From: Octopus vulgaris
Taxonomy: Eukaryota
Length of the DNA: 64,000 nucleotides
Assembly (NCBI GenBank): GCA_951406725.2
Contig: OX597833.1
Span: forward strand, 44,454,001-44,518,000
Direction: 5' to 3'
This document shows positions 2,421 through 53,539 of the stretch, one piece after another (the first letter of the stretch is position 1; every line of letters begins with the position of its first letter). The translations under genes were made by a program, and so were the position numbers. The notes under the pieces are model-generated. The model was given only the letters and a program-made list of their open reading frames with translations. It had not been told where the DNA came from and did no database searches.

Positions 2421-2729
2421 CTATTGATTCAAGCCAATTCACTTCTTCTATCAATGCACGTCATGATGACCATTAGATAGCACGCACAGGGATTTCGTAC
2501 TCAGTGGTGAAGGCTTGTATAGACTAAGTTTAGTGTCCAAGCTACCCTGCTGGCTTAATGCGCACTTAAATACAAGTCAGAAATCGCTCAATCACTCTCT
2601 CTCTCTAAATATGTATGTGTATATGTGTGTGTTTGTAACCATATATGTATTGCATGTATATATATATAATGAATATATATAGATATATATATATGTAAAA
2701 GTATATATAAATATATATATCTTGTTCTT

Positions 2730-3300
2730 CGTTATAACATATTCCACTATTTGCCACGGATCACAGACTAGTTCACAGCAAAGTATTTGTTAAAACATAT
2801 ACAAAGAGGATACTGAGATGCAGTATACATCTGAGAATAAGCATCGCTTCTTGAAAAAAATCTAGAAACGACAAAACATTTTGAAATGCATTTAAACTCA
2901 AAGCTTGCAGAAATAGAGGAGTGTAACAACCATGAAGTGTTGTAGCACAATTGGTTCAACGAGAACGATTCTCAAATTAAACCTCTCCCACAAACTTTGC
3001 ACAGGAGACACAAGACACGGATTCCGGACTAAAACTCACCAACACTAAGATCACTATACATTTTCTCTAGAAAAACTACACAGAAAAAATTGTATGATAT
3101 GAAAATTTCTTGGAGGGTCAAAAAGCCCAAGAACTTGAACAGGATGATAAATCTCCGAAACTTAGAGGAATGTATAACAATCTAAAGGGAGACACAGAAC
3201 CTTTTTTCTCTAGCGACAGAACAGAAATTAGCAAAGTTGAAATTCTGGGAAAGATGGGTTGAACACTGTAAATTTGTTCTAAATCAAAAATCCACTACCG
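2730..3300 (+). mobile_element. Highly degenerate L1/Tx1-like LINE fragment
   Basis: DHRLV-like endonuclease end motif followed by a GY(W)-like segment; heavily disrupted. Duplicated at about 24230-24850. Confidence 0.3.
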
Positions 3301-3344
3301 ATCCTGAAATAATCAGCGAAATCACCCTATAACGAAGGATTATG

Positions 3345-4100
3345 TGACCATTGTTCGAAAATAATAGTTTGAAAACAATTATGCGAAAACATTTATTCAA
3401 AAATCATTTATTCAAATGGAAAATTGTATGAATGAAAATTATTCAAAAGGACAATTTTACGAAATGTTAATTATTGTAATTTTTATTATTTTATTCAAAC
3501 AAAAATGATAAACTTAAAAATCAGTACACAAATGATATTTATTTAATATACATATATCTTTATCTGCAATGATTAAAAACAATTACGAATGAAACAAATA
3601 AATTTGTATAAGAGTATTAGAGAATATACAGTAAATTGTAATTATATAAATTTATTTAACTATATGGTAATTTGATTTAATTTATATTTTATCATAGTTA
3701 ATTCTAAATTTTAGGTTTCTAGTGGATGATATCTTATTGTTTATTATTTGTTTCTCTCTTAGAGATTTTATTCTCTTTTTTGCTAAGCTAAAATATATTT
3801 GTAGTTTTCATGGATAAAATGTATATTTCCATCTGTTTGTTCTATTTCTCTAAGCCACGTATTCACGAGTAAATTTATAAACGCTAAGTAATACGTTTTT
3901 CGTTTTGAAACTTTTTAGTTCATAATACGCCTTTTGGAGAGATAAGTAGACATTTTTGTTTGAGATATTTATTTAATCTATATAAGTATTGATTGTTAAA
4001 TATGATTTTCCTATTTTTTATTAGTTAATGATAATTTAGATACATTTATTTAATTATTATTATTTTATAATTATTATATCTGAAAATATAATCACTGTGA
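3345..4100 (-). mobile_element. Very degenerate MULE-like DNA transposon relic
   Basis: Short subterminal repeats (ttattcaaa/gaaaa) at about 3345-3465 and a decayed TNN-containing C-terminal transposase-like frame. Confidence 0.3.
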
Positions 4101-4164
4101 TTTTGATTGTACAAATGTTTTGGTATAACTAAAAGCTCTTATTATATTTCAAGTACTATTAAAT

Positions 4165-4165
<1 letters not shown>

Positions 4166-4217
<52 letters not shown>

Positions 4218-4312
4218 CAAGAAGAAGAAGAAGAAGAAGAAGAAGAAGAAGAAGAAGAAGAAGAAGAAGAAGAAGAAGAAGAAGAAGAAGAAGAAGAAGA
4301 AGAAGAAGAAAG
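4166..4312. repeat. Compound microsatellite (AAT)n(GAA)n
   Basis: Read directly; a longer copy lies at 25726-25940. Confidence 0.98.
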
Positions 4313-4739
4313 ATAATATGTATCTTTTCGTAAATAAGTTTATAAACGATAAGTTACACGTTTTTACTTTGGAATTTTTCATTTCTTATATTCAGCTTCA
4401 TAAATATTTTCGGAATGATATCTATAATATTTATTTAAGTAATAATGGAGTAATTCATTTCTTTATTTATATGTTTATTGATTGAAAAAATATGGACTTT
4501 CAATTACTATATTTTTTTTTACTTATAATTCAGATACGTAACATAATATAAATTTATTATTTCATAATTATTATATGTAAGCTAAAACCTAAAACCTGAA
4601 CATCTGATTTAGGTGTATCTGTCATGTAGATGTTCTTCTCGAGAGCTGATTTCAAGAGGTATCTCATTAAAATAAACTCTGTGTCGCAAGATTTCTTCTT
4701 GGTCTTCGTATATACAAATGGCAAATTATGCTATACAGC

Positions 4740-5240
4740 TTCCTTCTTACAGAAGATCCAATAACAAATATCCATAACAAATATCTTTTCATTTTATTAC
4801 TGCAAAAACGTCATCTTTTTGGAAGATCTCTTGTGCACAGCTTCTGGAATGGCTATCATCAAACACCAGCATTACTCCACCATCATATCTGAGTCCCATC
4901 GCCCTTGGTAGTGTTCTTCTGTTTGATGTTAACTGTTTGATGAAAGCGTTCACCTTTTTCGTCGCTAACATCACTCAGATTCTCAGAAAACTCATCCAAG
5001 AAACTGAGTAAGTAGTGCAATTTAATGTTCATTCTACATCCAAGTGCTTGCAAACTCAAGAGCAGCTCTTCCACAATCTCTTCATATTTGTCACCTTTCC
5101 TGTTCCCAAAGAATTCAGCACCACATCATAGGAGCCCACCCTCATTATAGCAGCAAAATGTGGATCCCTGAGGAGCGTTCTTATTTCATGTCCATCATAT
5201 ATTCCTGCCTTCTTCTCGTCACAGATACTTAGAAAGGATG
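4740..5240 (-). mobile_element. Chapaev3/CMC-like DNA transposase C-terminal remnant
   Basis: Peptide LGCRMNIKLHYL...NLSDVSDEKGERFHQ...YQGRW resembles the SDEQGERFHQ motif of this group; disrupted. Confidence 0.7.
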
Positions 5241-5864
5241 TACCTTAATAACTAAAACAGCCTCCACTATGATCAAGAGCTGTTGTGATTTGCTTCATTA
5301 TACTAAGTTTCAAGACATGTTTTGCAAATTTATGGGGAGCCCAAGTTTTGACCTGGTCTCAAAGTGCTACTTTAATGTAAGAAAGACACACCGTCTAGAC
5401 AAAGTTATTGATGTTGCACCAATGAGCCTATAGAATGAAGTATCCACTGACATAGAAGATATCGGGGTCATTACGGAACGTTCTTATCTTTGAGGATATA
5501 TCCACAACTAGGTCACTGTGGTTCAGTTTACACCCAAAAAGAATAGGAAGGATTATAAAGCAAAACTCAGCTTTAATATATTATTCAAAATTAACATCAC
5601 AATCCAGCCAAAATTTCCTGCAAATAGTAGTGCAAAGTTAATTTTTGGTATTAACTTTGTATAGAGAACTACATATCAAATCCTAATGAGAATTGTCGAA
5701 GGCTAATTAGTTCATTGATAAATTCATCAATTAATTGATTAACAATGCGTGCAAACCAAATACATTGTGATGAATAGCTTAAAAAGCTATTCAAATCTCT
5801 CAGAACCTTGAAGTTATGTAACAACATCGACTTCATTTTTGCGTCTGGTAAATATATATATATA

Positions 5865-6273
5865 GGCGCAGGAGTGGCGGTGTGGTAAGTAGCTTGTCTG
5901 ACAACCACATGGTTCCGGTTTCAGTCCCACTGCGTGGCACCTTGGGAAAGTGTCTTCTACTATAGCCTCGGGCCGACCAAAGCCTTGTGAGTGGATTTGG
6001 TAGACGGAAACTGAAAGAAGTCCGTCGTATATATGTATATATATATGTATGCGTGTGTGTGTTTGTGTGTCTGTGTTTGTCCCCTAGCATTGCTTGAAAG
6101 CCGATGCTGGTGTGTTTATGTCCCCGTTACTTAGCAGTTCGGCAAAAGAAGACCGATAGAATAAGTACTGGGCTTACAAAAGAATAAGTCCCGGGGTCGA
6201 GTTGCTCCACTAAAGGCGGTGCTCCAACATGGCCGCAGTCAAATGACTGAAACAAGTAAAGGAGTAAAAGAGT
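5865..6273 (+). mobile_element. Full-length octopus-type tRNA-derived SINE with CORE-like segment
   Basis: ggcgcaggagtggcggtgtggtaag A-box head, ggtttcagtccc B-box, ccttgggaaagtgtc CORE-like motif, internal (TA)/(TG) tract, gagtaaaa tail. Confidence 0.9.
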
Positions 6274-7107
6274 AATATTACATGGAAAATGCGAGCAAGA
6301 GAAACAATATTCTTAAGATTAGAAACCTGCAAAATTACAGGAAGCGTTATTATACTTGCAAAAGTTCATGAAAACTTATTACATCTGGTAAAATACAGAT
6401 GTAGAAAACTTTTACTTAAAATATTGCAGATAAGGATAAAATTTCAGATGAAATATTTAGATTCAGAAAATATTAGCTTTTATAAAAAGTAAAAGTTTTA
6501 TTACAAGTTATTACTTCTATTGGTTATTACAAGTTATTACTTCTATTTGTTATTACAAGTTATTACTTCTATTTGTTATTACTTGTTACTTCTATTAAAT
6601 ATTAAAAATAGCTCAGTTAAAATATATTTCGCACTTTAAGAAAATTCATCATTTTAATTATTAATTTATAATAGGAATTTTTAAAATGGACTATAAAAAA
6701 TTATAGTAGTACAAAATTAGTACAATAAACTGAATGATACAATAATAAATATTATATATTCAGCAAAATTTAGCCATAACATATACACAATAAAATTTGC
6801 TTGCGTGAGCCAATACTTCTTTTTTACATAACGAATTTGCCTACCATACATATCATTTCATTTTGCATAACACTTTAGCTATATTGATACTTTTTGTTTC
6901 TCACTTTTTAAAGTATTCTCGCTTGATCAAAACTCAATTTCTTTCTGCCAAAATGTACCTCGGAACAAGTCCTCTACGAAAATATTAACTATTTCAATTT
7001 GGTTAATAACTGAATTAGTGACAATCTCTGAAATGTACTACGTGTGAATATATTGCGGCCTTAAGAATATTATTCAATTACTACAGTAGTATATATATAT
7101 ATATATA

Positions 7108-7160
7108 TACTATTTGTTACTTTTCAGTCTTAAGTATGTATGCATGTATGAATCTACTAG

Positions 7161-7191
<31 letters not shown>

Positions 7192-7264
7192 TCATACTGT
7201 ATGTATAAAATATATATGTATATATATATGTATGAATGTATATACATATATATATATATGTATG

Positions 7265-7321
<57 letters not shown>

Positions 7322-7361
7322 TCATACATATATATATACGTATATATTTTATACATACAGT

Positions 7362-7406
<45 letters not shown>

Positions 7407-7454
7407 TAGTAGATTCATACATACATACTTAAGACTGAAAAGTAACAAGTAGTA
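7108..7454. repeat. Inverted repeat (arms of about 50-55 bp) enclosing a (TA)n-rich microsatellite; MITE-like
   Basis: ttgttacttttcagtcttaagtatg...aatctactagta is the reverse complement of tactagtagattcatac...cttaagactgaaaagtaacaa. Confidence 0.8.
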
Positions 7455-9833
7455 ATAGCTGAACAAAGAACTCAGTACACTATATAGAGGAAATATATTT
7501 ATTTATTACCAAGAAAGTTGACAGTGAAGTTGACTCCGAAATTTTGGATCAGGTGTTAAGTAAACAGCATTCTGAAAAAGGGAAGAATTGCCATCATATA
7601 GAGAAACAATGGTTAGGTTAGGAAGAAGGTAACATGTATACATATTTACACGCACGCGCTGTGTCAGTGCGTGCGCATTTATATGTGTGTGTTTATGAAT
7701 ATAAATAGATAAATAGACAGGTAGATAGATATACATACATACGTACATACATACATACATACATACATACATACATACATACATACATACATACATACAA
7801 TCATACATACATACAAACATACATCCTTTTCGGGCATGTTCGTTTGTTGGCTGCACCATATAACTCGTAACAATAAAATTCATACCAAACATTCAACTTC
7901 ATCTCATCTCAAGTGTACCTTCCGAAAAGATTTCCTAACTTCCATTTACAGTCATGATCTCCAATGAACCTGTAAATGTGAAATTCGACGTCTCACGCAG
8001 CTCATTGTCCAGTTAATACAATGTGGTAAGTGCTTGGTAACATTCAATATACAAAACCCCTAAGTTTGTGTGAACCTTTCTCCCAAGATTAAAAAATGGG
8101 GAAGGAGAGCAAGTGTACGAAAATAGGTTTCAGAACTGACACCCACATCTATCTGACTTGTTTATTTGGAAGTCTTTGTTCAGTGTGTTCATGTGTCTTC
8201 GCATCATCAGCCACACCATCTCACGTCTTCAATTGAAATGGATGTTTTGAGTAGATGCATCTCTTGAACACTGAACCCTGTTCCTTCTACAAGAAACAAA
8301 ATGAATTGTTGTCACTCTGCTCAGAAGGTTCTTATGACGAGATCAGCCGTCATTCAGCTACACCAATGCCAATCAGTTATCACCAGTACTTAATCCTTTC
8401 TGAGTGGGAAGGGTAACGATGCTTGAAAATTATTATCAATTTTAATTAACATGGACATATGGACTGAACCAGAATACCTAAAATTATAAACGATATCCAT
8501 TCATCTTGTCATCTATAACAGACATTCATGCAACCATCTCGATCGCTTTTGGTAAAGCACCGTTTATCATGAGTTCCAGTGGTCGAAACGATGAGAGTGA
8601 AATCGCCAGTCTTTATGCAGACACGATTCTTCCTTCTCTGTTATAGTTAGGGCGTTATACCTTTCAATATTTATAACAGCTCGTTTCGATCCTCAATTGA
8701 GAGAACATGTAAAAAAAACAAAGAGGCAAATTTAATGCAGCAAACTCTTGATTCAACGCACGACCAATAGATTATTGCTTATTTTGATAACCAACAGAAG
8801 TCACTGTGCATTATAGCAACGATCCACGTTCAAAATCCGACATCTCCAGTCTGTGGTTTTTGGAAACATTTAGGCTAAGTTCAGCTTAAAAACTACTACC
8901 ATTGTCTGGAACCATTTGACTTACTCGTTGCAGTCCGTCACAGACATAAATGGGGCCTATATACGCGCTGAGTCTCTGTAAATCCCTGTCCATGAATTTC
9001 AGGGATCGAGCCCTAAGTACATGCACGGCATACTTCGTGATTCGTGTCGAGAAAATGATGAATGATTATTCTCACAAAGAACACGTCGTAAGCGATGTCT
9101 TTTCTCTTCACTTCTAATTTTCTGTTAATATTTCTTTTTGATGAAACCCAACATCTGTTATTAAATTTACCCATCAATTCCTGCGTAACTGGTTGGCTAA
9201 TTCGATCTGCACAACTTCTCCATTTTGTGTGAGATATGTTCCGTCTTCAGTATCCTGAAGCTGTTTATTAATCTCGTCTATGTTGATTGTATGGATAACC
9301 AATTTGACTTAACTGTAACCAGCTGCCCGAAACTGTGGACAACATACGCTAAGCCGATCGTTTATTTTGTAAACAATTTATCTACAACCCAAATATTCTA
9401 CGGTTATTTCTTCGGCGTTGGTGATACCGGTTTGGCAACTGTGAGTCGGAGCGCACTAAGTATCATTCCTAATAATATTATTAATATTATATAAGGGTTT
9501 AAGTGTGTTTTGATGAAAAAAGTATATACATACATGGAAATACGCATGCATACATATATTCACAATCACGCGTGTGTGTAAACGTACACAAAATATGCAT
9601 GCCGCCATACATATACAAATATGAATGCAAGCCTATTTCTAAAAGAATTTTTTCCCAGATGTTTGGCACCAACCCCGCCCCCACCCCATCAGGGAAACAT
9701 ATCCATTTCACGTATGCAAATGCACAGAAACCACATACATATAACCACATAAACAAAGCTTTTTTGCAAACACCCACACGTATAAAAACATGAAAACATA
9801 TTCGTACGCAAGAAGGCACAGACACACACACAG

Positions 9834-9870
<37 letters not shown>

Positions 9871-10255
9871 TGAAAAGTATGAATACATACAATGGGGAGC
9901 ACTCCGCTGCCCTAACCACTGGGCCATTGCGCCTCCACACATACAATAGCATAGAGACGCCGTAAGCATATTTAAACGAGAATACCTCTATGTGGCATTT
10001 TAACTAACAAGAAATAGTAGCCACGTCACATACATATCACAAGAACTTTTTTAAAAGAAGTTTGGATACATTGGATATTATAGTCCCAGGTGTTCTATTC
10101 CTGAAAAGAACGGATGCGATTGTTACACCCGGAATACCGTCGACTCTTAGATAACGGTTGAGCTGAGGCTAAATAACCGTTGTGACAAGAAAAGGGTAAA
10201 CACCAATAAGGGTAAGAAATAGAAAATGGATTTACCTTTTCTTACGAACTGCTCC

Positions 10256-10551
10256 CTAACCGGAGATTTGTCTGGTAAGTGAACCAAAATTTGTTTTGCA
10301 TGTGATACTTGTGTCAGATACGTCTTTCATTTGTGTAGTGAAATTATAAAAAGATGATACCAGAGAATAACAGCTGGAAGTAACTGGTATTTTCTCTCCT
10401 TTGATGTCATAATTTGATTTACCATGCTTTGTAACAATCCACGCAAAGGCTACATGCGATTCAAATGGTGCGCCAACATTTGCTACACATCTAAAGATTA
10501 TTATTTTTCTGTATTTCTTGACAAGTTCCAGACTCTTTAAGCTAGATCTTG
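10256..10551 (-). CDS. Two-Ig-like-domain gene, paralog A, exon 3 (second Ig-like domain, ends in TAG)
   Basis: Acceptor ttttcttttcag|CA (phase 1). Reads ARSSLKSLELVKKYRKIIIFRCVANVGAPFESHVAFAWIV...TSITCKTNFGSLTRQISG*, with Ig-like C-x15-W...C spacing. Homologous to 31750-32048 and 62626-62930. Confidence 0.8.
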
Positions 10552-10885
10552 CTGAAAAGAAAACGATCTAATATAGCAAAATGTTATAACAATATGCTTT
10601 GACTATTGGGTGGTTTCACTAATATAAACAACAATCTTCATACTAAACTAAAATGTTTAACACCAGACGAATTGTTCTTGATGCTGGACCCTGTGAACTA
10701 CTGTTTCTAATTTGCATACACATGCACACGCACACAGAGACACACACGCTCTTAGACAGGCATACATCTCATGGGCGTCTCTTTGCTATTTTCGTACATC
10801 TATCTGGTTTAAATAATTGTTGTGTTCTAATTTTTCGCCTCTTGTCAAATATATGATTTTACCTACTCGTTTTGTTACTACTCCG

Positions 10886-11441
10886 TAGGACATTTTCATA
10901 TGAAATGCTGTTTTTTATGAGAAAAAAAAGACACCCTGTGGCAATAAACTGAGGCGTCACTCGTAAATAGAGCTGGATAACAAAACCTTTCCCTCTTTAG
11001 TGTCCACCAATAATTATGACCCTAGTATCCATCTGTTGCATTTCAATCTGTTTCAGGGTTAGGGTTAGAGTTAGGGTTAGGGTTAGGGTTAAGGTTAGGG
11101 TTAGCGGTGGGGGGAAGGGTATCTTTTTTCTTCAGAAATGTAAATAAACCCAATCTGTTTTTTAAAAGAATATATAATATGTAACAGGGACATTTTCATA
11201 TGACGCCGCCAGAAAATGTTACGGCAGATATCGCTTTCACCTCAATAGACGTCATTCATTGGTTGAAATTGCCGAAATGCAAGAAATTAAACTACAAATA
11301 TCTTACAAACTACAGAATTTTCTCACAAAAGCCAACAGAGAAAGATATTTTATAGACACATTCTACCAGTATACGAAGTTTAAAATTTTTTAGATACATA
11401 GAAATTATTTTTAAAATATGCCAGTCAAAGTGAAAAGATCC
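10886..11441. mobile_element. Non-autonomous repeat carrying an interstitial (TTAGGG)n tract, in intron 2 of gene A
   Basis: About 8 TTAGGG-like units at 11056-11104; internal direct repeat ggacattttcatatga; absent from the paralogous intron of gene B. Confidence 0.6.
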
Positions 11442-24047: not shown

Positions 24048-25723
24048 TCTTTTAGTAAACTTTTAATACTTTTGATATATATTTAAAATAATATAAATTA
24101 ATTAATTTTATGTATTGGCTTAGGTTTTTCATTGTTTGATTTGCATAATAGTGGTTTATCTCCAATTTAATACAATATATATATATATATATAAGTAAAT
24201 ATATGAATATATATGTTGTTCTTCGTTATAACATATTCCACCATGTGCCAGTGCCAGTGACTAGATCGGGAATGCTTCCAAGTGTTTTCGTATTTGTCTG
24301 CCTGCTGAAACGGATCACAGAATAGGTCACAGCAAAGTATTTGTTAAAACATATACAAAGAGGATACTGAGATCCAGTATACATCTGAGAATAAACGTCG
24401 CTTCTTTAAAAAAAATCTAGAAACGACAAAGCATTTTCAAATGCATTTAAACTCAAAGCTTGCAGAAATAGATGAGTGTAACAACCAGGAAGTGTTGTAG
24501 CACAATTGGTTCGACGAGGACGATTCTCAAATTAAACCTCTCCCACAAACTTTGCACAAGAGACACAAGACACGGATTCCGGACTAAAACTCACCAACAC
24601 TAAGATCACTATACATTTTCTCTAGAAAAACTACACAGAAAAAATTGTATGATATGAAAATTTCTTGGAGGGTCAAAAAGCCCAAGAACTTGAACAGGAT
24701 GATAACTCTCCCAAACTTAGAGGAATGTATAACAATCTAAAGGGAGACACAGAACCTTTTTTCTCTAGCGACAGAACAGAAATTAGCAAAGTTGAAATTC
24801 TGGGATAGATGGGTTGAACACTGTAAATTTGTTCTAAATCAAAAATCCACTACCGATCCTGAAATAATCAGTGAAATCACCCTATAACGAAGGATTATGT
24901 GACCATTGTTCGAAAATAATAGTTTGAAAACAATTATGCGAAAACATTTATTCAAAAATCATTTATTCGAATGGAAAATTGTATGAATGAAAATTATTCA
25001 AAAGGACAATTTTACGAAATGTTAATTATTGTAATTTTTATTATTTCATTCAAACAAAAATGATAAAATTAAAAATCAGTACACAAATGATACTTATTTA
25101 ATATACATATATCTTTATCTGCAATGATTAAAAACAATTACGAATGAAACAAATAAATTTGTATAAGAGTATTAAAGAATATACAGTAAATTATAGTTAT
25201 ATAGATTTATTTAACTATATGGTAATTTGATTTTATTTATATTTTATCATAGTTAATTCTAAATTTTAGATTTCTAGTGGATGATATCTTATTGTTTATT
25301 ATTTGTTTCTCTCTTAGAGATTTTATTCTCTTTTTTGCTAAGCTAAAATATATTTGTAGTTTTCATGGATAAAATGTATATTTCCATCTGTTAGTTCTAT
25401 TTCTCTAAGCCACGTATTCACGAGTAAATTTATAAACGCTAAGTAATACGTTTTTCGTTTTGAAACTTTTTAGTTCATAATACACCTTTTGGAGAGATAA
25501 GTAGACATTTTTGTTTGAGATGTTTATTTAATCTATATAAGTATTGATTGTTAAATATGAATTTTTTATTTTTTATTAGTTAATGATAATTTAGATACTT
25601 ACATTTATTTAATCATTATTATTTTATAATTATTATATCTGAAAATATAATCACTGTGATTTTGATTGTACAAATGTTTTGGTATAACTAAAAGCTCTTA
25701 TTATATTTCGAGTACTATTAAAT

Positions 25724-25725
<2 letters not shown>

Positions 25726-25784
<59 letters not shown>

Positions 25785-25790
25785 GAATAA

Positions 25791-25821
<31 letters not shown>

Positions 25822-25940
25822 AAGAAGAAGAAGAAGAAGAAGAAGAAGAAGAAGAAGAAGAAGAAGAAGAAGAAGAAGAAGAAGAAGAAGAAGAAGAAGA
25901 AGAAGAAGAAGAAGAAGAAGAAGAAGAAGAAGAAGAAAGA
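25726..25940. repeat. Compound microsatellite (AAT)n(AAG)n
   Basis: Read directly. Confidence 0.98.
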
Positions 25941-26349
25941 TAATATGTATCTTTTCCGTAAATAAGTTTATAAACGATAAGTTACACGTTTTTACTTTGG
26001 AATTTTTCATTTCTTATATTCAGAGTCATAAATATTTTCGGAATGATATCTATAATATTTATTTAAGTAATAATGGAGTAATTTATTTCTTTATTTATAT
26101 GTTTATTGATTGAAAAAATATGGATTTTTAATTACTATATTTTTTTTACTTATAATTCAGATACGTAACATAATATGAATTTATTATTTAATAATTATTA
26201 TATGTAAGCTAAATCCTAAAACCTGAACATCTGATTTAGGTGTATCTGTCATGTAGATGTTCTTCTCGAGAGCTGATTTCAAGAGGTATCTCATTAAAAT
26301 AAACTCTGTGTCGCAAGATTTCTTCTTGGTCTTCGTATATACAAATGGC

Positions 26350-26860
26350 AAATTATGCTATACAGCTTCCTTCTTACAGAAGATCCATAACAAATATCCA
26401 TAACAAATATCTTTTCATTTTATTACTGCAAAAACTTCATCTTTTTGGAAGATCTCTTGTGCACAGCTTCTAGAATGGCTATCATCAAACACCAGCATTA
26501 CTCCACCATCATATCTGAGTCCCATCGCCCTTGGTAGTGTTCTTCGATTATGTTAACTGTTTGATGAAAGCGTTCACCTTTTTCGTCGCTAACATCACTC
26601 AGATTCTCAGAAAACTCATCCAAGAAACTGAGTAAGTAGTGCAATTTAATGTTCATTCTACATCCAAGTGCTTGCAAACTCAAGAGCAGCTGTTTCACAA
26701 TCTCTTCATATTTGTCACCTTTCCTGTTCCCAAAGAATTCAGCACCACATCATAGAAGCCCACTCTCATTATAGCAGCAAAATGTGGATCCCTGAGGAGT
26801 GTTCTTATTTCATGTCCATCATATATTCCTGCCTTCTTCTCGTCACAGATACTTAGAAAG
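26350..26860 (-). mobile_element. Chapaev3/CMC-like transposase remnant (duplicate of 4740-5240)
   Basis: SDEKGERFHQTVNIIEEHYQGRWD. Confidence 0.7.
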
Positions 26861-27487
26861 GATGTACCTTAATAACTAAAACAGCCTCCACTATGATCAA
26901 GAGCTGTTATGATTTGCTTCATTATACTAAGTTTCAAGACATGTTTTGCAAATTTATGGGGAGCCCAAGTTTTGACCTGGTCTCAAAGTGCCACTTTCAA
27001 GTAAGAAAGACACACCGTCTAGACAAAGTTATTGATGTTGCACCAATGAGTCTGCAGAATGAAGTATCCACTGACATAGAAGATATCGGGGTCATTACGG
27101 AACGTCCTTATCTTTGAGGATATATCCACAACTAGGTCACTGTGGTTCAGTTTACACCCAAAAAGAATAGGAAGGATTATAAAGCAAAACTCAGCTTTAA
27201 TATATTATTCAAAATTAACATCACAATCCAGCCAAAATTCCTGCAAATAGTAGTGCAAAGTTAATTTTTGGTATTAACTTTGTATAGAGAACTACATATC
27301 AAATCCTAATGAAAATTGTCGAAGGCTAATTAGTTCATTGATATATTCATCAATTAATTGATTAACAATGCGTGCAAACCAAATACATTGTGATGAATAG
27401 CTTAAAAAGCTATTCAAATCTCTCAGAACCTTCAAGTTATGTAACAACATCGACTTCATTTTTGCGTCTGGTAAATATATATATATA

Positions 27488-27897
27488 GGCGCAGGAGTGG
27501 CTGTGTGGTAAGTAGCTTGTCTGACAACCACATGGTTCCGGTTTCAGTCCCACTGCGTGGCACCTTGGGCAAGTGTCTTCTACTATAGCCTCGGGCCGAC
27601 CAAAGCCTTGTGAGAGGATTTGGTAGACGGAAACTGAAAGATGCCCGTCGTATATATGTATATATATATGTATGCGTGTGTGTGTTTGTGTGTCTGTGTT
27701 TGTCCCCTAGCATTGCTTGACAACCGATGCTGGTGTGTTTATGTCCCCGTTACTTAGCGGTTCGGCAAAAGAAGACCGATAGAATAAGTACTGGGCTTAC
27801 AAAAGAATAAGTACCGGGGTCGAGTTGCTCGACTAAAGGCGGTGCTCCAACATGGCCGCAGTCAAATGACTGAAACAAGTAAAGGAGTAAAAGAGTA
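27488..27897 (+). mobile_element. Full-length tRNA-derived SINE (duplicate of 5865-6273)
   Basis: Same head, CORE-like segment and tail. Confidence 0.9.
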
Positions 27898-28074
27898 ATA
27901 TTACATGGAAAATGCGAGCAAGAGAAACAATATTCTTAAGATTAGAAACCTGCAAAATTACAGGAAGCGTTATTATACTTGCAAAAGTTCATGAAAACTT
28001 ATTACATCTGGTAAAATACAGATGTAGAAAACTTTTACTTAAAATATTGCAGATAAGGATAAAATTTCAGATTA

Positions 28075-28165
28075 AATAAGTCCTGGGGTCGATTTGCTCG
28101 ACTAAAGGCGGTGCTCCAGCATGGCCGCAGTCAAAATGACTGAAACAAGTAAAAGAATAAAAGAA
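28075..28165 (+). mobile_element. 5'-truncated SINE 3' end, present only in unit B
   Basis: aataagtcctggggtcgatttgctcgactaaaggcggtgctcc...aagtaaaagaat; not found at the unit A site near 6455. Confidence 0.8.
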
Positions 28166-28779
28166 AAGAATTAAAAAATTAAGAAAATATTAGCTTTTAT
28201 AAAAAGTAAAAGTTTTATTACAAGTTATTACTTCTATTGGTTATTACAAATTATTACTTCTATTTGTTATTACTTGTTACTTCTATTAAATATTAAAAAT
28301 AGCTCAGTTAAAATATATTTCGCACTTTAAGAAAATTCCTCATTTTAATTATTAATTTATAATAGGAATTTTTCAAATGGACTATAACAAATTATAGTAG
28401 TACAAAATTAGTACCATAAACTGAATGATACAATAATAAATATTGTATATTCAGCAAAATTTAGCCATAACAAATACACAATAAAATTTGCTTGCGTGAG
28501 CCAATACATCTTTTTTACATAACGAATTTGCCTACCATAAATATCATTTCATTTTGCATAAAACTTTAGCTATATTGATACTTTTTGTTTCTCACTTTTT
28601 AAAGTATTCTCGCTTGATCAAAACTCAATTTCTTTCTGCCAAAATATACCGCGGGACAAGTCCTCTACGAAAATGTTAACTATTTCAATTTGGTTAAGAA
28701 CTGAATTAGTGACAATCTCTGAAATGTACTACGTGTGAATATATTGCGGCCTTAAGAATATTATTCAATTACTACAGTA

Positions 28780-28854
<75 letters not shown>

Positions 28855-28944
28855 CATTCATATTATATTTTACTATAAAATTGGATTCAATCCTAAATCT
28901 GATTTTTCCCTGTAAATTTGGATTTATTCCCTAATATTTATTAT

Positions 28945-29004
<60 letters not shown>

Positions 29005-31353
29005 TAGTAGATTCATACATACATACTTAAGACTGAAAAGCAACAAGTAGTAATAGCTGAACAAAGAACTCGGTACACTATATAGAGGAAATATATTTAT
29101 TTATTACCAGTAAAGTTGACTGTGAAGTTGACTTCGAAATTTTGGATCAGATGTTAAGTAAACACCATTCTGTAAAATGGAAGAATTGCCATCATATAGA
29201 GAAACAATGGTTAGGTTATGAAGAAGGTAACATGTATACATATTTACAATCATGCGCTGTGTCAGTGCGTGCGCATTTATATGTGTGTGTTTATGAATAT
29301 AAATAGATAAATAGACAGGTAGATAGATATACATACATACGTACATACATACATACATACATACATACATACATACATACATACATACATACATACATCC
29401 TTTTCGGGCATGTTCGTTTGTTGGCTGCACCATATAACTCGTAACAATAAAATTCATACCAAACATTCAACTTCATCTCATCTCAAGTGTACCTTCCGAA
29501 AAGATTTCCTAACTTCCATTTACAGTCATGATCTCCAATGACCCTGTAAATGTGAAATTCGACGTCTCACACAGCTCATTGTCCAGTTAATACAATGTGG
29601 TAAGTGCTTGGCAACATTCAATATACAAAACCCCTAAATTTCTATGAACCTTTCTCCCAAGAGTAAAGAACGGGGAAGGAGAACAAGTGTACGAAAATAA
29701 GCTTCAGAACTGACACCCACATCTATCTGACTTGTTTATTTGGAAGTCTTTGTTCAGTATTTTGATGTCTTCCCATCATCACACCATCTCACGTCTTCAA
29801 TTGAAATGGATGTTTTGAGTAGATGCATCTCTTGAACACTGAACCCTGTTCCTTCGACAAGAAACAAAGTGAATTGTTGTCACTCTGCTCAGAAGGTTCT
29901 TATGACGAGATCAGCCGTCATTCAGCTACACCAATGCCAATCAGTTATCACCAGTACTTAATCCTTTCTGAGTGAGAAGGGTAACGATGCTTGAAAATTA
30001 TTCTCAATTTTAATTAACATAGACATATGGACTGAACCAGAATACCTAAAATTATAAACGATATCCATTCGTCTTGTCATTAATAACAGACATTCATGCA
30101 ACCATCTCGATCGCTTTTGGTAATGCACCGTTTATCATGAGTTCCAGTGGTCGAAACGATAGAGAGTGAAATCGCCAGTCTTTATGCAGACACGATTCTT
30201 CCTTCTCTGTCATAGTTAGGGCGTTATACCTTTCAATACTTATAACAGCTCGTTACGATCCTCATGAGAGACAATATGTAAAAGAAAAAACAAAAATGCA
30301 AATTTAATGGAGCAAACTCTTGATTCAACGCACGACCAATAGATTATAGCTTATTTTGATAACCAACAGAAGTCACTGTGCATTATAGCAACGATCCACG
30401 TTCAAAATCTGACATCTCCAGTCTGTTGCTTTTTGGAAACACGTTCCGCTTAAAAACCGCTACCATTGTCTGGAACCATTTGACTTACTCGTTGCAGTCC
30501 GTCACAGACATAAATGGGGCCTTTATACATGGTTAGTCTCTGCAAATCTTTGTCCATGTATTTCAGGGATCGAGAAAATGATGAATGATTATTCTCACGA
30601 CGAGCACGCCGTAGGCGATGTCTTTTCTCTTCACCTCCTCTGTCGAAACTACACTTCTAATATTCTGTAAATATTTCTTTTTGATGAAACCCAACATCTG
30701 TTATTAAATTTACCCATCAATTCCTGCGTAACTGGTTGGCTAATTCGATCTGCACAACTTCTCCATTTTGTGTGAGATATGTTCCGTCTTCAGTATCCTG
30801 AAGCTGTTTATTAATCTCGTCTATGTTGATTGTATGGATAACCAATTTGAGTTCACTGTAACCAGCTGCCCAAAACTGTGGACAACATACACAATGCCTA
30901 TCGGTTATTTTGTAAACAATTTATCTACAACCCAAATATCCTACTGTTATTTCCTCGACGTTCGTAACAACTGTGATTCAGAGTGCACTAAGTATCATTC
31001 CTAATAATATTATTAATATTACATAAGGGTTTAAGTGTGTTTTGATGAAAAAAGTATATACATACATGGAAATACGCATGCATACATATATTCACAATCA
31101 CGCGTGTGTGTAAACGTACACAAAATATGCATGCCGCCATACATATACAAATATGAATGCAAGCCTGTTTCTAAAAGAATATTTGCCCAGATGTTTGCAC
31201 CATCCCCCATCAAGGAAACGTATCTATTTCACGTATGCTAATGCACAGAAACCACATACATATAACCACATAAACAAAGCTTTTTTGCAAAGACCCACAC
31301 GTATAAAAACACGAAAACATCTTCGTACGCAAGAAGGTACAGACACACACACA

Positions 31354-31443
<90 letters not shown>

Positions 31444-47154: not shown

Positions 47155-48130
47155 CAATCACATTTCTTCTTTTGAGATTGACTTCTGTTGGAAGTGAATA
47201 TTTTATTCTCCACCACATCACTCTTTTTGAGATTTACTTCCATTTGAAACTCAATATTTTTTTTTCGATTTGGAACCATTTCGTATGCTTTCTTTTTCTT
47301 GTACTGTTATGTCTTAATTCGACGATTTCTTGTGGAGTTGTCACATTAAAAATATCGTAGAGGACTTCCATGGGTACTTTCCTCGAAACACTTTCTTCCG
47401 CAAACCTTTTCAACTGATTTTAAGTGTCTTTTATTCTCCCATTTCGAATCTTTCACCACGTGTCTCATTTTACCGACCTGTTTTCTTATTTTGCCGCTTT
47501 CCCAACCTTCTTTTCCATTTCTGTACATTCTTTAAACACCTTATCACCAGGTTTAAAATACTTGGTCGTATCTTGAGTGTTTTCCCTAGTTTTTAGTTTT
47601 CTTCCAGGTAATAACTTGTCAAAAGCCGTGAATTGTGTACCGTTATCGGAGATTATGCTATGCGGCTATCCGGGACACTACACCAAACAAAAGGTTCGTG
47701 TTGAAATTCGACTGCTACCGTGGAGGTCGGATTGTCACATTTACACATTTCTGGCCATTTTTTTAATTAGCTATCTACCACTATTAGGTAATATGATCAG
47801 TTTAACGGTCCTGTGAAGTCTGTGTGTAGCCTGGTCCATGGTATATCGGCCTTGGGTCAAGGTTGAAATTTATTAGGTAGTGATTTCGCTGCAAGAGCAC
47901 AACTTCTGAAGGATGTTACCAACTTCTCAATACATTATCGATACATTATCGCCCAGTAAGTATAACTCCTCATAAGCGACTTCGTACTAGAAATTCCTGG
48001 ATGTACAGTGTGGAATTTCTTTAACATTCGATTTTTTAGCGAGGCAGGCGTTCCAACCCTCTGTGCGTACATAAGCATATTATCACAAATCGAATACAAA
48101 TTCGAAGCGGTGTTTCGTCCGGCCACATTA
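47155..48130 (-). mobile_element. Gypsy integrase remnant, older paralog of 20975-21800
   Basis: TPASLKNRMLKKFHTVHPGISSTKSLMRSYTYW; colinear with 20975-21800 but more diverged. Confidence 0.85.
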
Positions 48131-48373
48131 TTATACACACACACACATGCACACATATATGTGTGTGTGTGTGTGTGTATGCATAACTAACATGTAACTG
48201 AGAACCGTTGGCTCTTCTGAGTCCATCCGCCCTTTCACAGATCTGATATTCATCCCACCAGGTGTTCAAAATCACCACGCAAGCTTGTGGTGTTATCGGT
48301 GTATTGGCCTACGTTTTGACCATTCAGCATGTTGTACTGGGATGCGTTAGAAGTAGCACTCAAGAGCTACCCT

Positions 48374-48462: not shown

Positions 48463-49161
48463 GTGAGTATTATCTAGAAATCCGAGTGTAGCAAGTTAAT
48501 TAGCTTCAAGCAATAATAAAATAATAGTAAATTTTTAAAATAATTATTCTCGGCTGCAATATTTTAAGTACAGTAGAATTTAAATTTTAAGTACTTTTTA
48601 GTTTCCTTTACAAGTGACAAATTAGGTAAATTCTACTGTAGAAATCTTGTTTTGTACTTTTCCAGATGTAATAACTTGAGAATATTAACATGCATACGCC
48701 CGCATTTTCCATTGTAATATAGAAATACCAGCGATAATAATTAATTTATTTTATCGCAATTTGATTTGTTTACATATTTCTCGATAAATTTTGGAGCGTT
48801 AGACAATATACCAGAAATCCCTAGTTTTGTCGGGACGTTCTGAGTCTGCGCAGTGATCTGATTAGTTAGAGAGAGCAAATCATTAGAAGCACATGCTTCT
48901 AGTGAGTTAGGATCTCAGAACAACAGGGCTCTTACCGATGAATTCTCCCTGAGCAAATAAATTATATTTATTGCTGAAAAGAACGAAACTGCAGTCTAAG
49001 AGTAACCGAGTTAGTAAATGTTTTTATCTTCATTTCACTAAATTTATCTAGCTTCTGTGTTTCAGGCACATATTTCGCCTTAATGTACTGATATATGAAA
49101 AATATATGGCTTGTGCTAGAAATACCAGCGATAATAATTAATTTATTTTATCGCAATTTGA

Positions 49162-49202
<41 letters not shown>

Positions 49203-49321
49203 ACAATAAAGGAACGGCCATAATAGGCCATTCACCCACTAGAAATAACAGCCAAAGCTTCAACCGCAAATAAAAGTTAATTCAGTAAACCAGGAGAAAA
49301 TTTAAAAACATTTACCCTGTA

Positions 49322-49428
49322 ATTTCTTATACGATATACCGTTTCATCTGCTGATTAATGGTAAACTAACCTGATTAAATTAAATCAAGCCAATCTTCCA
49401 CAGGCCCTCAGATTCTTCAGTAAGAAAT
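49322..49428 (-). ncRNA. Type I hammerhead ribozyme, copy 1
   Basis: Reverse complement of the motif at 50566-50672. Confidence 0.88.
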
Positions 49429-49813
49429 AGCCCAAGACGGAACAGATATTTTCACGAGGCATTTCCGACGTTGCCAAGTTTATATCTGACCTAAAATTTT
49501 CAAATCGTCGCACTCGCGCCAAATTTATCGGCAGCAAATAAATATAAGCCGTCGATTCCATTACGGAATTAACCAGAAAATTCATAATTAATCAATATAG
49601 GGTGGCAAAAAAATTTTGTAGAATTCTTTTGCCACCAGCGGCCTAGTAGGAAAAAATTAAAATAGTCATAGACCATTTTTAAGTTCAACATCAACAATAA
49701 AGGAACGGCCATAATAGGCCATTCACCCACTAGAAATAACAGCCAAAGCTTCAACCGCAAATAAAAGTTAATTCAGAAAACCAGGAGAAAATTTAAAAAA
49801 CATTTACCCTGTA

Positions 49814-49920
49814 ATTTCTTATACGATATACCGTTTCATCTGCTGATTAATGGTAAACTAACCTGATTAAATTAAATCAAGCCAATCTTCCACAGGCCCT
49901 CAGATTCTTCAGTAAGAAAT
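49814..49920 (-). ncRNA. Type I hammerhead ribozyme, copy 2
   Basis: Reverse complement of the motif at 50566-50672. Confidence 0.88.
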
Positions 49921-50302
49921 AGCCCAAGACGGAACAGATATTTTCACGAGGCATTTCCGACGTTGCCAAGTTTATATCTGACCTAAAATTTTCAAATCGT
50001 CGCACTCGCGCCAAATTTATCGGCAGCAAATAAATATAAGCCGTCGATTCCATTACGGAATTAACCAGAAAATTCATAATTAATCAATATAGGGTGGCAA
50101 AATTTTGTAGAATTCTTTTGCCACCAGCGGCCTAGTAGGAAAAAATTAAAATAGTCATAGACCATTTTTAAGTTCAACATCAACAATAAAGGAACGGCCA
50201 TAATAGGCCATTCACCCACTAGAAATAACAGCCAAAGCTTCAACCGCAAATAAAAGTTAATTCAGTAAACCAGGAGAAAATTTAAAAAACATTTACCCTG
50301 TA

Positions 50303-50409
50303 ATTTCTTATACGATATACCGTTTCATCTGCTGATTAATGGTAAACTAACCTGATTAAATTAAATCAAGCCAATCTTCCACAGGCCCTCAGATTCTTCA
50401 GTAAGAAAT
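50303..50409 (-). ncRNA. Type I hammerhead ribozyme, copy 3
   Basis: Reverse complement of the motif at 50566-50672. Confidence 0.88.
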
Positions 50410-50565
50410 AGCCCAAGACGGAACAGATATTTTCACGAGGCATTTCCGACGTTGCCAAGTTTATATCTGACCTAAAATTTTCAAATCGTCGCACTCGCGC
50501 CAAATTTATCGGCAGCAAATAAATATAAGCCGTCGATTCCATTACGGAATTAACCGTCTTGGGCT

Positions 50566-50672
50566 ATTTCTTACTGAAGAATCTGAGGGCCTGTGGAAGA
50601 TTGGCTTGATTTAATTTAATCAGGTTAGTTTACCATTAATCAGCAGATGAAACGGTATATCGTATAAGAAAT
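50566..50672 (+). ncRNA. Type I hammerhead ribozyme, copy 4 (inverted)
   Basis: Stem I ATTTCTTA/TAAGAAAT; core CTGAAGA at 50574-50580; stem II ATCTG...CAGAT with a long extension; GAAA at 50649-50652; stem III ACG-GTATAT-CGT; GTA triplet with predicted cleavage after 50664. Confidence 0.9.
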
Positions 50673-50918
50673 TACAGGGTAAATGTTTTTAAATTTTCTC
50701 CTGGTTTACTGAATTAACTTTTATATGCGGTTGAAGCTTTGGCTGTTATTTCTAGTGGGTGAATGGCCTATTATGGCCGTTCCTTTATTGTTGATGTTGA
50801 ACTTAAAAATGGTCTATGACTATTTTAATTTTTTCCTACTAGGCCGCTGGTGGCAAAAGAATTCTACAAAATTTTTTTTGCCACCCTATATTGATTAATA
50901 TATATATATATATATATA

Positions 50919-52212
50919 CGAGGGACGTTCAATAAGTAATGCCTCTGACCAACTTGCAGTTGTTTGATCTAGCTGAAATTTTTCATGTGCAATTATTTAT
51001 ATCTCTATAGATTAAGTGGCAAATTACAGCTCTGAACTAATTGTGGTTTCTGATTTACAGGTGTTTGAACTGAGTCAAGTGTGAAATGGAGCCTGTTGAG
51101 TGTCGAGCAGTGATCCGGTTTTTGTATTTGAAAGGAGGCACACCACGGGAGACTTTTGATGAAATGAAAGTAACTTATGGTGATGATGCCCCATCATATG
51201 ACCTTGTAAAACGCTGGCATCGTGAATTCAAACATGGTCGGAACTCTGTGGAAACAGCTCCCAGATCTGGTCACCCCCACCTTCTGCCATTCATGAGGCA
51301 TTTGTCCGTCAAGTTGAGGCTGCCATTTTGGAAGATCGACGCATAACTATTCGCCAAATAACCCATTAGGTCAAGATTAGTACCGGGTCTGTGGAAACTA
51401 TCATTCATGACCATTTGCATATGCAAAAGGTGTCTGCCAGATGGATTCCCAGGTTGCTCACACCTTTCCAGAAGCAAGAACGCGTCGAGTGCTCGAGGGT
51501 GAATTTGGAGATGTGCCAAGAAGATGAGTCAAAATTTCTCAAAAGACTGATTACACAGGATGAAACCTGGGTCCATCACTATGATCCATAGACCAAAGCC
51601 CAGTCAATGCAGTGGAAGCACCGTGACTCACCTCCTCCAAAGAAGGCAAGGGTTCAGCCCTTCGCTGGCAAGGTCATGCTCACAGTCTTCTGGGACCAGG
51701 ACGGAGTAGTGATGACAGATTTCCTGGCAATGGGTACCACAATTACAGGAGCCTATCATGCTTCACTTTTGAGGAAATTAAGAGAAGCTATCAAAATCAA
51801 GAGGCGGGGCTAGATCAGCAAAGACATCCTCCTCCTGCAGTACAACACTCCAGTTCACAACTCGCGTGTCGCCAGATCAGAAGCACAGGCGTGCGGCTAT
51901 GAACTCCTCCCCCATCCCTCTACTCTCCTGACCTTGCACCCTCAGATTTTCACCTCTTCCCATCCATGAAGTTGTTTTTGAAAGGAAAGCGTTTCCCAGA
52001 TGATGCAGCCTTGATTTCTGAAGTCACGTCGTGGTTGGAGGACCAAGCTGGGGTCTTCTACAAAAACGGTCTCCAGAGCTGCATCAAACGAGGGGAGAAA
52101 TGCGTAACTCTGGGTGGTTCCTATGTAGAAAAAGACTAATAACTGTGCCAAGTTTCGTTGCTCTACTACTGTGGGAAGTGGGTCAGGGGCATTACTTATT
52201 GAACGCCCCTCG
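50919..52212 (+). mobile_element. Full-length Mariner (DD34D), same family as 19695-20964; transposase 51086-52139 pseudogenised
   Basis: TIRs cgaggg(a/g)cgttcaataagtaatg; TA context; motifs ARWIPRLL, ITQDETW, YSPDLAPSDFHLF; frameshifts and in-frame TAG codons at about 51589 and 51811. Confidence 0.95.
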
Positions 52213-52250
<38 letters not shown>

Positions 52251-52292
52251 TAAGAAAGTTTGTTTGTGAAAGCACGTGGGTGAATATATAAG

Positions 52293-53496
52293 AAAATAGT
52301 AAAGAGTGAAAAAACGACAGAAGGCTTAAATGTTAAAGAATATATATATTTGCGTCAATATGTCTGGAGAATATTGGAAAAAATTTTTTCCCTTCTTATA
52401 ATGACATAATTTTATAATTTTTAAAGAAAGACCGGTTTCGCATTTAGCTCTTCAAATTTCTTGCGACGTAATGTTTATCTTTAATAGCGTTATCCTTGTT
52501 TTTTTGCTACGGAGAGTTCTAAATAAGGGAAGGTAGTGCGTGATTTCTTCCGAAAATACTACCTTACATATCTACATACAACCCCAGAAACAAAGAAGCT
52601 TTCACCATCATCACCCAGAATTTACCAATACTTCATAAAAACCCCAAATTAAAGGAGATTCTAAACATACACCAAATCATTAAAAGCTACAAACAGCCTA
52701 AATCACTTAAAAAGATTCTCACAAAGGCAAAAATTATCTTCTGAAATTACGGATGCAAAAGTAAAAAAATGTAGTAGATCGAACTGTGCAACATGTCCTA
52801 ACCTACTAGAAGGATCAGAATTCTTCTTTAAAGAGGGACAGAAATTCAAGATCAAATCTAACTTTACTTGTGCCTCTGAAAACATAATTTATGTCATAAA
52901 ATGCTCGGGCTGCCACCAAGACTACGTGGGGTCCATGGGACTATCACTCAGACGTAGATGCACACTGCATCGACAACAGATTGCATTCCCAGAATATAGA
53001 ATGATACCTTTTAGTGAGCACATTGAGAAATGCGCAAAGCAACTACAACCACAATTTTTAATCTTTCCATTTTACCAATGTGCTTTCGGATCATCAACAC
53101 AAATTAGACTAAACAAGGAAACATTCTTCATTGAAAAGTACAAACCCAGACTCAGCTATCCAAACATAATAATACAGAGAAATTCACACTAAGAGAAAAA
53201 GGAAAAAAAAATTTTTAAGCGATTATCTCCTTTACACCGGAAGAAATCACGCACTACCTTCCCTTATTTAGAACTCTCCGTAGCAAAAAAACAAGGATAA
53301 CGCTATTAAAGATAAACATTACGTCGCAAGAAATTTGAAGAGCTAAATGCGAAACCGGTCTTTCTTTAAAAATTATAAAATTATGTCATTATAAGAAGGG
53401 AAAAAAATTTTTCCAATATTCTCCAGACATATTGACGCAAATATATATATTCTTTAACATTTAAGCCTTCTGTCGTTTTTTCACTCTTTACTATTT

Positions 53497-53497
<1 letters not shown>
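52293..53497 (+). mobile_element. 5'-truncated Penelope-like retroelement: GIY-YIG endonuclease region flanked by inverted pLTR arms
   Basis: KQPKSLKKIL...CSRSNCATC...IIYVIKCSGCHQDYVGSMG...RRRCTLH...ETFFIEKYKPRL, with a frameshift near 52730. Arms 52293-52552 and 53238-53497 are 260-bp reverse complements. Confidence 0.92.
53328..53366 (+). ncRNA. Minimal hammerhead-like motif in the Penelope pLTR (mirror copy on the minus strand at 52424-52462)
   Basis: AAGAAA-t-TTGAAGA-GC taaat GC-GAAA-CCG-GTC-TTTCTT; palindromic stem III; C3-to-U variant. Confidence 0.6.

Positions 53498-53539
<42 letters not shown>

Follow-up and report, generated by a model that had tools for sequence, protein, structure and literature searches.

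Metazoan retrozymes and Penelope-like elements are the closest described systems to the locus examined here. For metazoan retrozymes, the accessible part of PMC7229834 proposes a model in which RNA circles are copied into tandem cDNA, with a Penelope element as mobiliser. The consulted sections of a recent preprint (Li, Clavereau, Pollet 2026, 10.64898/2026.07.22.740005) regard retrozymes as non-autonomous Penelope derivatives, arguing from co-occurrence and pLTR similarity, and report that eight of nine predicted Xenopus retrozymes failed to cleave in vitro. Penelope insertions are characterized, in the available portion of PMC8557442, by 5' truncation, inversion, a one-sided tail and a preference for (TA)n. 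The Penelope protein performs cleavage and extension on both strands, with two internal reverse transcription start sites delimiting the tail (PMC11167929); for the anole element studied in that work, insertion in vitro proceeded normally with ribozyme mutants, and the cut was not the end point of any read. The mobiliser of animal retrozymes, the question of whether their template is a circle, and the role of the hammerhead in the Penelope cycle are stated to be open in the literature as far as it was accessible, and the octopus family provides genomic footprints for each, comprising two fixed start sites, cut-site ends and array-wide variants.

The window, meaning the whole 64,000-nt stretch of Octopus vulgaris DNA analysed, holds an element spanning 49199 to approximately 50899 between (TA)n tracts. 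Judged from sequence, it is with high probability a recent retrozyme insertion into (TA)n made by a Penelope-like protein, the candidate source of which is the coding family designated D below. The first-pass annotation had described four essentially identical 107-nt hammerheads, three of them in minus-strand tandem; scanning the window on both strands for the core and stems finds exactly these four, which are identical throughout their 107 nt. The minus-strand copies are spaced 489 and 492 nt apart, and TRF reports the array with a period of 489, 2.8 copies, 99%. The fourth hammerhead lies on an inverted second arm joined at 50554-50555, the whole element being embedded in (TA)n. The numbering of unit positions begins with the base that follows the predicted cut and takes a natural 493-nt copy as reference. 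The features are as follows.

49164-49200, no strand: (TA)n target microsatellite, left flank, from TRF
49199-50555, minus strand: arm A, 2.75 units in head-to-tail order, its 3' end lying at unit position 132 (upstream start site) and its truncated 5' end at unit position 249
49322-49428, minus strand: type I hammerhead 1 from the scan, predicted cut between 49330 and 49329
49330-49821, minus strand: cut-to-cut monomer of 492 nt, predicted linear or circular RNA
49814-49920, minus strand: type I hammerhead 2, from the core-and-stem scan
49822-50310, minus strand: cut-to-cut monomer of 489 nt with a shorter T run
50303-50409, minus strand: type I hammerhead 3, from the core-and-stem scan
50554-50555, no strand: back-to-back arm junction with a 2-nt overlap
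50554-50899, plus strand: arm B, inverted, unit positions 383-493 followed by 1 to about 235, with the downstream start site at its 3' end
50566-50672, plus strand: type I hammerhead 4, its cut predicted to fall after 50664
50796-50899, plus strand: 'tail' present at one end only, about 106 nt long and bounded by the two fixed 3' ends; a 15-nt motif in common with Penelope family D lies in its final 20 nt
50899-50918, no strand: (TA)n target microsatellite on the right flank, beyond which lies a mariner remnant

A broken mariner with terminal inverted repeats (HTH_48, Transposase_1) occupies 50917-52214, so that retrozyme, mariner and Penelope are stacked within one series of (TA)n tracts. Immediately left of the retrozyme insertion, a 70-nt direct repeat is present at 48720-48789 and 49117-49186 (87% alike), and the minus strand of 47600-48180 carries a broken LTR-retrotransposon integrase remnant (Integrase_H2C2, E 2e-5). 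Elsewhere in the window, one series of simple repeats is present in two copies, at 2657-11104 and 24926-31443, about 21.6 kb apart, which suggests a local segmental duplication.

The hammerhead motif contains the type I core, with CUGANGA, GAAA, UH and three stems, stem I being open. Stem I measures 8 bp, the base of stem II 5 bp below a long hairpin, and the loop of stem III reads UAUA. The motif folds far better than shuffled sequences (z -4.1, 0/200), the catalytic fold lying at -29.6 kcal/mol, 1.8 above the predicted minimum of -31.4 kcal/mol. A search with the Rfam hammerhead models, proposed earlier as a check, gave no match at the gathering threshold nor even at E<=10, probably because of the long stem II insertion; the hammerhead call therefore relies on the core, the stems, the folding z-score and the pattern of variation. 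The circular monomer folds at -132.1 kcal/mol (z -4.2 against 60 shuffles) with 62% of its bases paired. Among sister subfamilies, the free core positions vary, N7 taking all four bases and position 17 being A or C, while the 11 invariant core sites are unchanged in 11-14 sister loci, against 143 variable positions among the 493 of the unit. Stem II shows one compensatory change, and loop 3 switches from UAUA to UGCA, both palindromic, which fits the dimer model of hammerheads as presented in the accessible part of PMC4209133. Covariation is modest, its score being reached by 11 of 500 shuffles, and the sequences compared are related and few. Array-wide variants at invariant core sites are absent from the young subfamily, an observation that alone is not significant. 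Taken as a whole, the subfamily variation supports, without deciding, that the putative ribozyme is under selection.

The 2.8-Gb assembly contains roughly 1,000 insertions dispersed on many contigs. The 39 candidates scored out of 758 hold 223 unit matches; genome-wide there are 550 exact core-to-cut copies, 181 exact junctions between unit position 132 and (TA)n, and 1,241 hits to a pattern of the 238 end, a number inflated by double counting in about one case in seven (14 of the first 100 rows). A total of 138 loci were read, consisting of the window, the 38 best matches, 79 others and 20 sites with a 238 end on C1. The 79 complete all 100 junctions at the 132 end listed for C1-C10, of which 21 overlap the 38. 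Copies of the window's subfamily are about 0.3% from their reference, in agreement with the recent insertion claimed at first pass, and sister subfamilies differ by 0.6% within loci and 4.9% between loci. The unit has 35% GC, below 50%, and the longest ATG frame in a natural dimer is 66 aa, bearing out its description as lacking a meaningful ORF. With all sequence-level features of the class present, the element is likely a young, non-coding family of metazoan non-LTR retrozymes with a unit of about 492 nt. A different long type I hammerhead was encountered at L203:400-480, in a short (TA)n-flanked element (about 360-720) beside a family C Penelope, and is possibly another retrozyme family.

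The structure of the insertions was examined in 100 loci picked solely by their 132 end. A second, inverted arm with its 3' end at about 232-243 is present in 76 of them, and (TA)n follows beyond the far end in 91. The 3' ends of both arms point outwards, one at position 132 and the other about 106 nt further on (approximately 238), while the back-to-back arm junction is variable, often with an overlap of 1-6 nt or a short insert. Fold-back synthesis of the second arm was considered and rejected, the second arm ending at 238 and not at the end of the first. The coding Penelope families of the same genome, among them A and D, also display inversion with a tail at one end only, their tails measuring about 35-50 nt; in family D, both ends could be typed in four of eight fetched loci, each having one end of each kind. 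The octopus insertions combine 5' truncation, an inverted copy, a one-sided tail and a microsatellite target, as Penelope insertions do. The RT/GIY-YIG protein that placed them into (TA)n likely came from a Penelope-like element with an endonuclease. The first-pass annotation had already suggested mobilisation by Penelope. That proposal agrees with the inverted-arm-plus-tail anatomy, on which it now stands, and its original argument from the neighbouring GIY-YIG remnant was wrong, the family of that remnant having no similarity to the unit.

The two arms of an insertion are coupled. Of the 76 loci, 17 have both arms stopping just after the predicted cut (Fisher p 1e-5), and the arm primed downstream has its end 3' of the other arm's in 14 loci against 2 for the reverse (p 0.004). 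The remaining 59 loci include 8 in which the arm ends fall within 5 nt of each other modulo the unit, with 1.6 expected (permutation, p 2.5e-4). The unit counts of the two arms also correlate (rho 0.57). Coupled arm ends, along with variants that are mostly array-wide, favour the reading that one RNA was copied by two enzymes. A further trait of the junctions is a stutter, defined by at least three reiterations of a 9-nt A/T motif, which occurs in 7 of the 100 loci and in 1 of the 20 with a 238 end. Both arms of all stutter loci are at the 5' end, and the repeats extend up to 239 nt. The motif is copied from unit positions of about 21-33 and the repeats are antisense, making slippage on RNA the economical reading, with host repair polymerase theta as the alternative source. 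One of the loci read, L155 (G000:C8:76107524-76114824), carries a retrozyme in the (TA)n tract where a family D Penelope has its 3' end, with a junction stutter of 109 nt.

Variation among the units informs the nature of the template. The variants of 117 loci comprise 60 that are array-wide, 7 partial and 114 confined to a single unit, counted without L056, a likely duplicate of L057, and with L119 and L123, which share a layout and may not be independent. Variants found in several units are nearly always present in all units of both arms. The 37 multi-unit loci represent 13 haplotypes, and 7 array-wide variants are private to one locus. Array-wide transitions on the RNA strand are all A/G (6 A>G and 5 G>A, polarity unfixed, with no C/T), four of the six A>G lying in the long stem II; among variants of a single unit, A>G is not in excess, with 9 cases to 7 of T>C. 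Array-wide variants imply a recurring single-unit bottleneck followed by amplification, as rolling-circle copying gives, and the arrays would be expected to release monomers or circles of about 490 nt. No record containing the unit is registered as RNA; the eight runs analysed consist of contigs, which say nothing about ends or strand, and four further runs presumed to be RNA contain parts of the unit and were left out of the evidence. A predicted circular RNA is accordingly the template that we modestly favour.

The strongest competitor keeps the same element and enzyme and dispenses with circles, invoking linear read-through of slowly cleaving arrays whose homogeneity is inherited; we consider it possible, though distinctly less probable than a circular template. 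It accommodates the single haplotype found in 16 of the 37 multi-unit loci, the competing fold that is slightly more stable than the catalytic one, and the dominance of unprocessed RNA as substrate of the anole Penelope in vitro (PMC11167929). It also draws on the excess of stops within the 30 nt that follow the predicted cut, which extends from first passes of the unit (42/150) to later ones (14/114; ratio 3.4, p 2e-4), and on the 7 partial variant patterns, which lack clean periodicity; from these last two results it follows that linear, partly cut multimers are also used. However, read-through would require another way to fix new variants in all units, considering the 60 array-wide and 7 private ones, as well as regrowth of arrays shrunk by 5' truncation. 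The restriction of array-wide transitions to A/G, as if a change at the RNA stage had been copied to all units, speaks against it too, and so do the 11 loci with near-equal arm ends, in 5 of which the unit counts of the arms differ.

The positions at which arms end carry a trace of the ribozyme. Among 176 arms, four of whose ends were set by hand, 56 have their end in the first 30 nt downstream of the predicted cut (a rate ratio of 6.2 with p approximately 2e-22), and a second sample repeats the pattern, with 9 of 33 arms stopping just after the cut (ratio 4.5, p 6e-4, two rows being counted twice). Few ends lie exactly at the cut, most of the pile-up falling 4-25 nt inside it. The simplest reading of this 5' pile-up suggests that ribozyme-cut RNAs served as templates, with a few bases lost on arm joining, and the predicted hammerhead cleavage in vivo is probable. 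These post-cut ends contrast with the dispensable ribozyme of the anole element (PMC11167929). A pile-up could also arise from a transcription start in each unit or from stalling of the enzyme at the folded ribozyme, with a hammerhead that rarely cuts, an account that we hold to be rather improbable. Most ends do lie at positions 5-25 rather than at 1, pLTRs likely hold promoters (PMC11167929), and 108 of the 176 arms cross at least one predicted cut site. Against this, the boundary coincides with the predicted cut, with 10 stops in the equal window of 30 nt before it; the post-cut window reaches 7.7 ends per kb, compared with 3.0 in the best other 30-nt window, stronger hairpins elsewhere giving no more than that; and the two free core positions are the only ones of the core to vary across subfamilies.

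The coding Penelope families of the genome were considered as partners of the retrozyme or as its possible parents. Four families, A to D, with a mutual identity of 55-60%, were compared; others may exist in the genome. Family D is present in many identical copies with intact 753-aa frames comprising RT, a CxxC finger and a GIY-YIG region; its nucleotide divergence of 0.18% makes it equally as young as the retrozyme family. Immediately before the downstream start site, family D and the unit are identical at 13 of 15 nt, a level reached by none of 452 other unit windows and by 2 of 3,000 shuffles, in a match that is short, AT-rich and post hoc. When anchored by position, the cut-to-tail segment of family D aligns better to unit positions 1-238 than 322 control windows do, a preference that families A-C do not show; in unconstrained local alignment the similarity does not exceed that of shuffles, and the region upstream of the family D ribozyme has no alignment to the unit. 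From these comparisons, the chance that family D supplies the mobilising protein is about even. Families B and C were rejected as partners, their ends and segments showing no similarity to the unit, and searching with another protein query brought up no additional Penelope family. The neighbouring GIY-YIG remnant belongs to family A, nine long copies of which have no similarity to the unit beyond chance; it lies near the retrozyme, 1.4 kb away, because both target (TA)n.

The remnant itself, at window 52249-53499, is a 5'-truncated family A copy with a GIY-YIG end, 269-nt inverted pLTRs and a tail of about 35 nt on the left arm. It bears a minimal hammerhead-like motif with U for C3 at 53328-53366 (plus strand) and 52424-52462 (minus strand), and family A has 18,770 first-look candidates in the genome. 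Family B (L172-L201, L206-L213) is young, with many intact 776-aa frames, and its 3' region of about 2 kb, ahead of the pLTR end, consists mostly of TG/TA microsatellite and a short tandem repeat. The tails of families A, B and D (L246, L213, window 52249-52290) have in common a short C-rich motif and, next to it on the 3' side or otherwise following it, an AC-rich stretch, which recalls the AC-rich start region of the anole element.

A parental relationship, in which the unit is the pLTR of a coding Penelope and the arrays are truncated insertions of it, is very improbable. It would explain the Penelope-type ends and tail, and the survey covered 138 of the roughly 1,000 loci and four coding families. 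Nevertheless, a coding Penelope frame is joined to the unit in none of the 138 loci, the Penelope pieces seen in seven of them all lying outside the element, and the first-pass annotation, which had named occurrence solely as such a pLTR as the case against a retrozyme, is upheld in its retrozyme reading, the units being dispersed, non-coding and each equipped with a type I hammerhead. Within an arm, as many as ten units directly succeed one another, and the coding families here carry minimal hammerhead-like motifs instead of the unit's long one. The surplus of 238 over 132 ends was also considered as the sign of a hidden coding parent and rejected, the 20 loci being sister retrozyme subfamilies with 85-100% identity, and no chimera with Penelope RNA was seen in single-arm loci. 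Least probable of all is the later satellite expansion of single insertions by unequal crossing-over, which the accessible part of the preprint suggests for vertebrate retrozymes (10.64898/2026.07.22.740005) and which would suit the variants common to some adjacent units, but which is opposed by identical array-wide variants in both inverted arms, the correlated arm unit counts, the small distance of copies from their reference and the dispersal of arrays over many contigs; amplification at the time of insertion is favoured.

A mechanism consistent with these footprints would begin with transcription of the arrays, whose RNA would partly self-cleave, perhaps through dimer folding, into linear monomers and multimers, and host ligation of the cut RNA would yield circles. 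The Penelope protein, supplied perhaps by family D, would then cut both strands of (TA)n, and each of the ends would prime reverse transcription at its own fixed internal site, one 132 and the other about 238 nt after the cut. Two enzymes would move along the same RNA, the downstream-primed one trailing; on cut RNA both would stop near the 5' end, and on a circle or an uncut multimer they could copy up to 9-10 units. Joining of the two cDNA ends via short microhomologies would finally produce the inverted junction. A more detailed joint reading is offered tentatively, as a possibility that may well fail in one of its parts: a dimer would prime both cut strands at the fixed sites; two reverse transcriptases would chase each other round a circle of about 492 nt or reach a ribozyme-cut 5' end; RNA edits would become fixed in every unit; the trailing enzyme, blocked about 20 nt short, would add telomerase-like repeats of the 9-nt template; and family D would be hijacked via the 15-nt start-site motif, which the unit would have retained from a D-like pLTR. 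If the Penelope enzyme makes the junction stutters, they would represent repeat addition by the sister group of telomerase. Family D offers an intact protein that can be tested directly in the existing in vitro Penelope assay.

In comparison with the metazoan non-LTR retrozymes of PMC7229834, as far as the accessible text describes them, the octopus family is alike in its non-coding, low-GC, self-paired tandem units with a type I hammerhead, dispersed and coexisting with Penelope-like elements. Its unit is longer than their 170-400 nt, its hammerhead, known here from DNA, has a stem II extension of about 58 nt unlike theirs, and that text contains no description of two-armed (TA)n insertions whose two ends are fixed. 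A literature search, outside which most subscription papers lay, found no paper on two-armed retrozyme insertions, cut-site ends or repeat addition at Penelope junctions. The preprint 10.64898/2026.07.22.740005 reaches the same overall conclusion as ours in its consulted sections, which deal mostly with vertebrates, contain no analysis of tail, inversion or start sites and favour local amplification; in the octopus, by comparison, a short motif and weak colinear similarity alone link unit and partner. Non-autonomous Chlamys elements such as MRC1 resemble the family in being non-coding, multicopy, arranged head-to-tail and similar at their 3' end to an autonomous family, and differ in belonging to a green alga, no hammerhead being mentioned for them in the available portion of PMC8557442. 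With EN+ Penelope elements of the Neptune/Nematis type, as covered by the consulted parts of PMC8557442, PMC11167929 and PMC4209133, the family shares 5' truncation, an inverted copy, a one-sided tail from two start sites, (TA)n preference and a palindromic loop 3, whereas the octopus unit has no ORF, a tail of about 106 nt against 30-50, a long rather than minimal hammerhead, and 5' ends enriched at the cut site. The element itself is of a known kind, a retrozyme, and its footprints are informative on mechanism.
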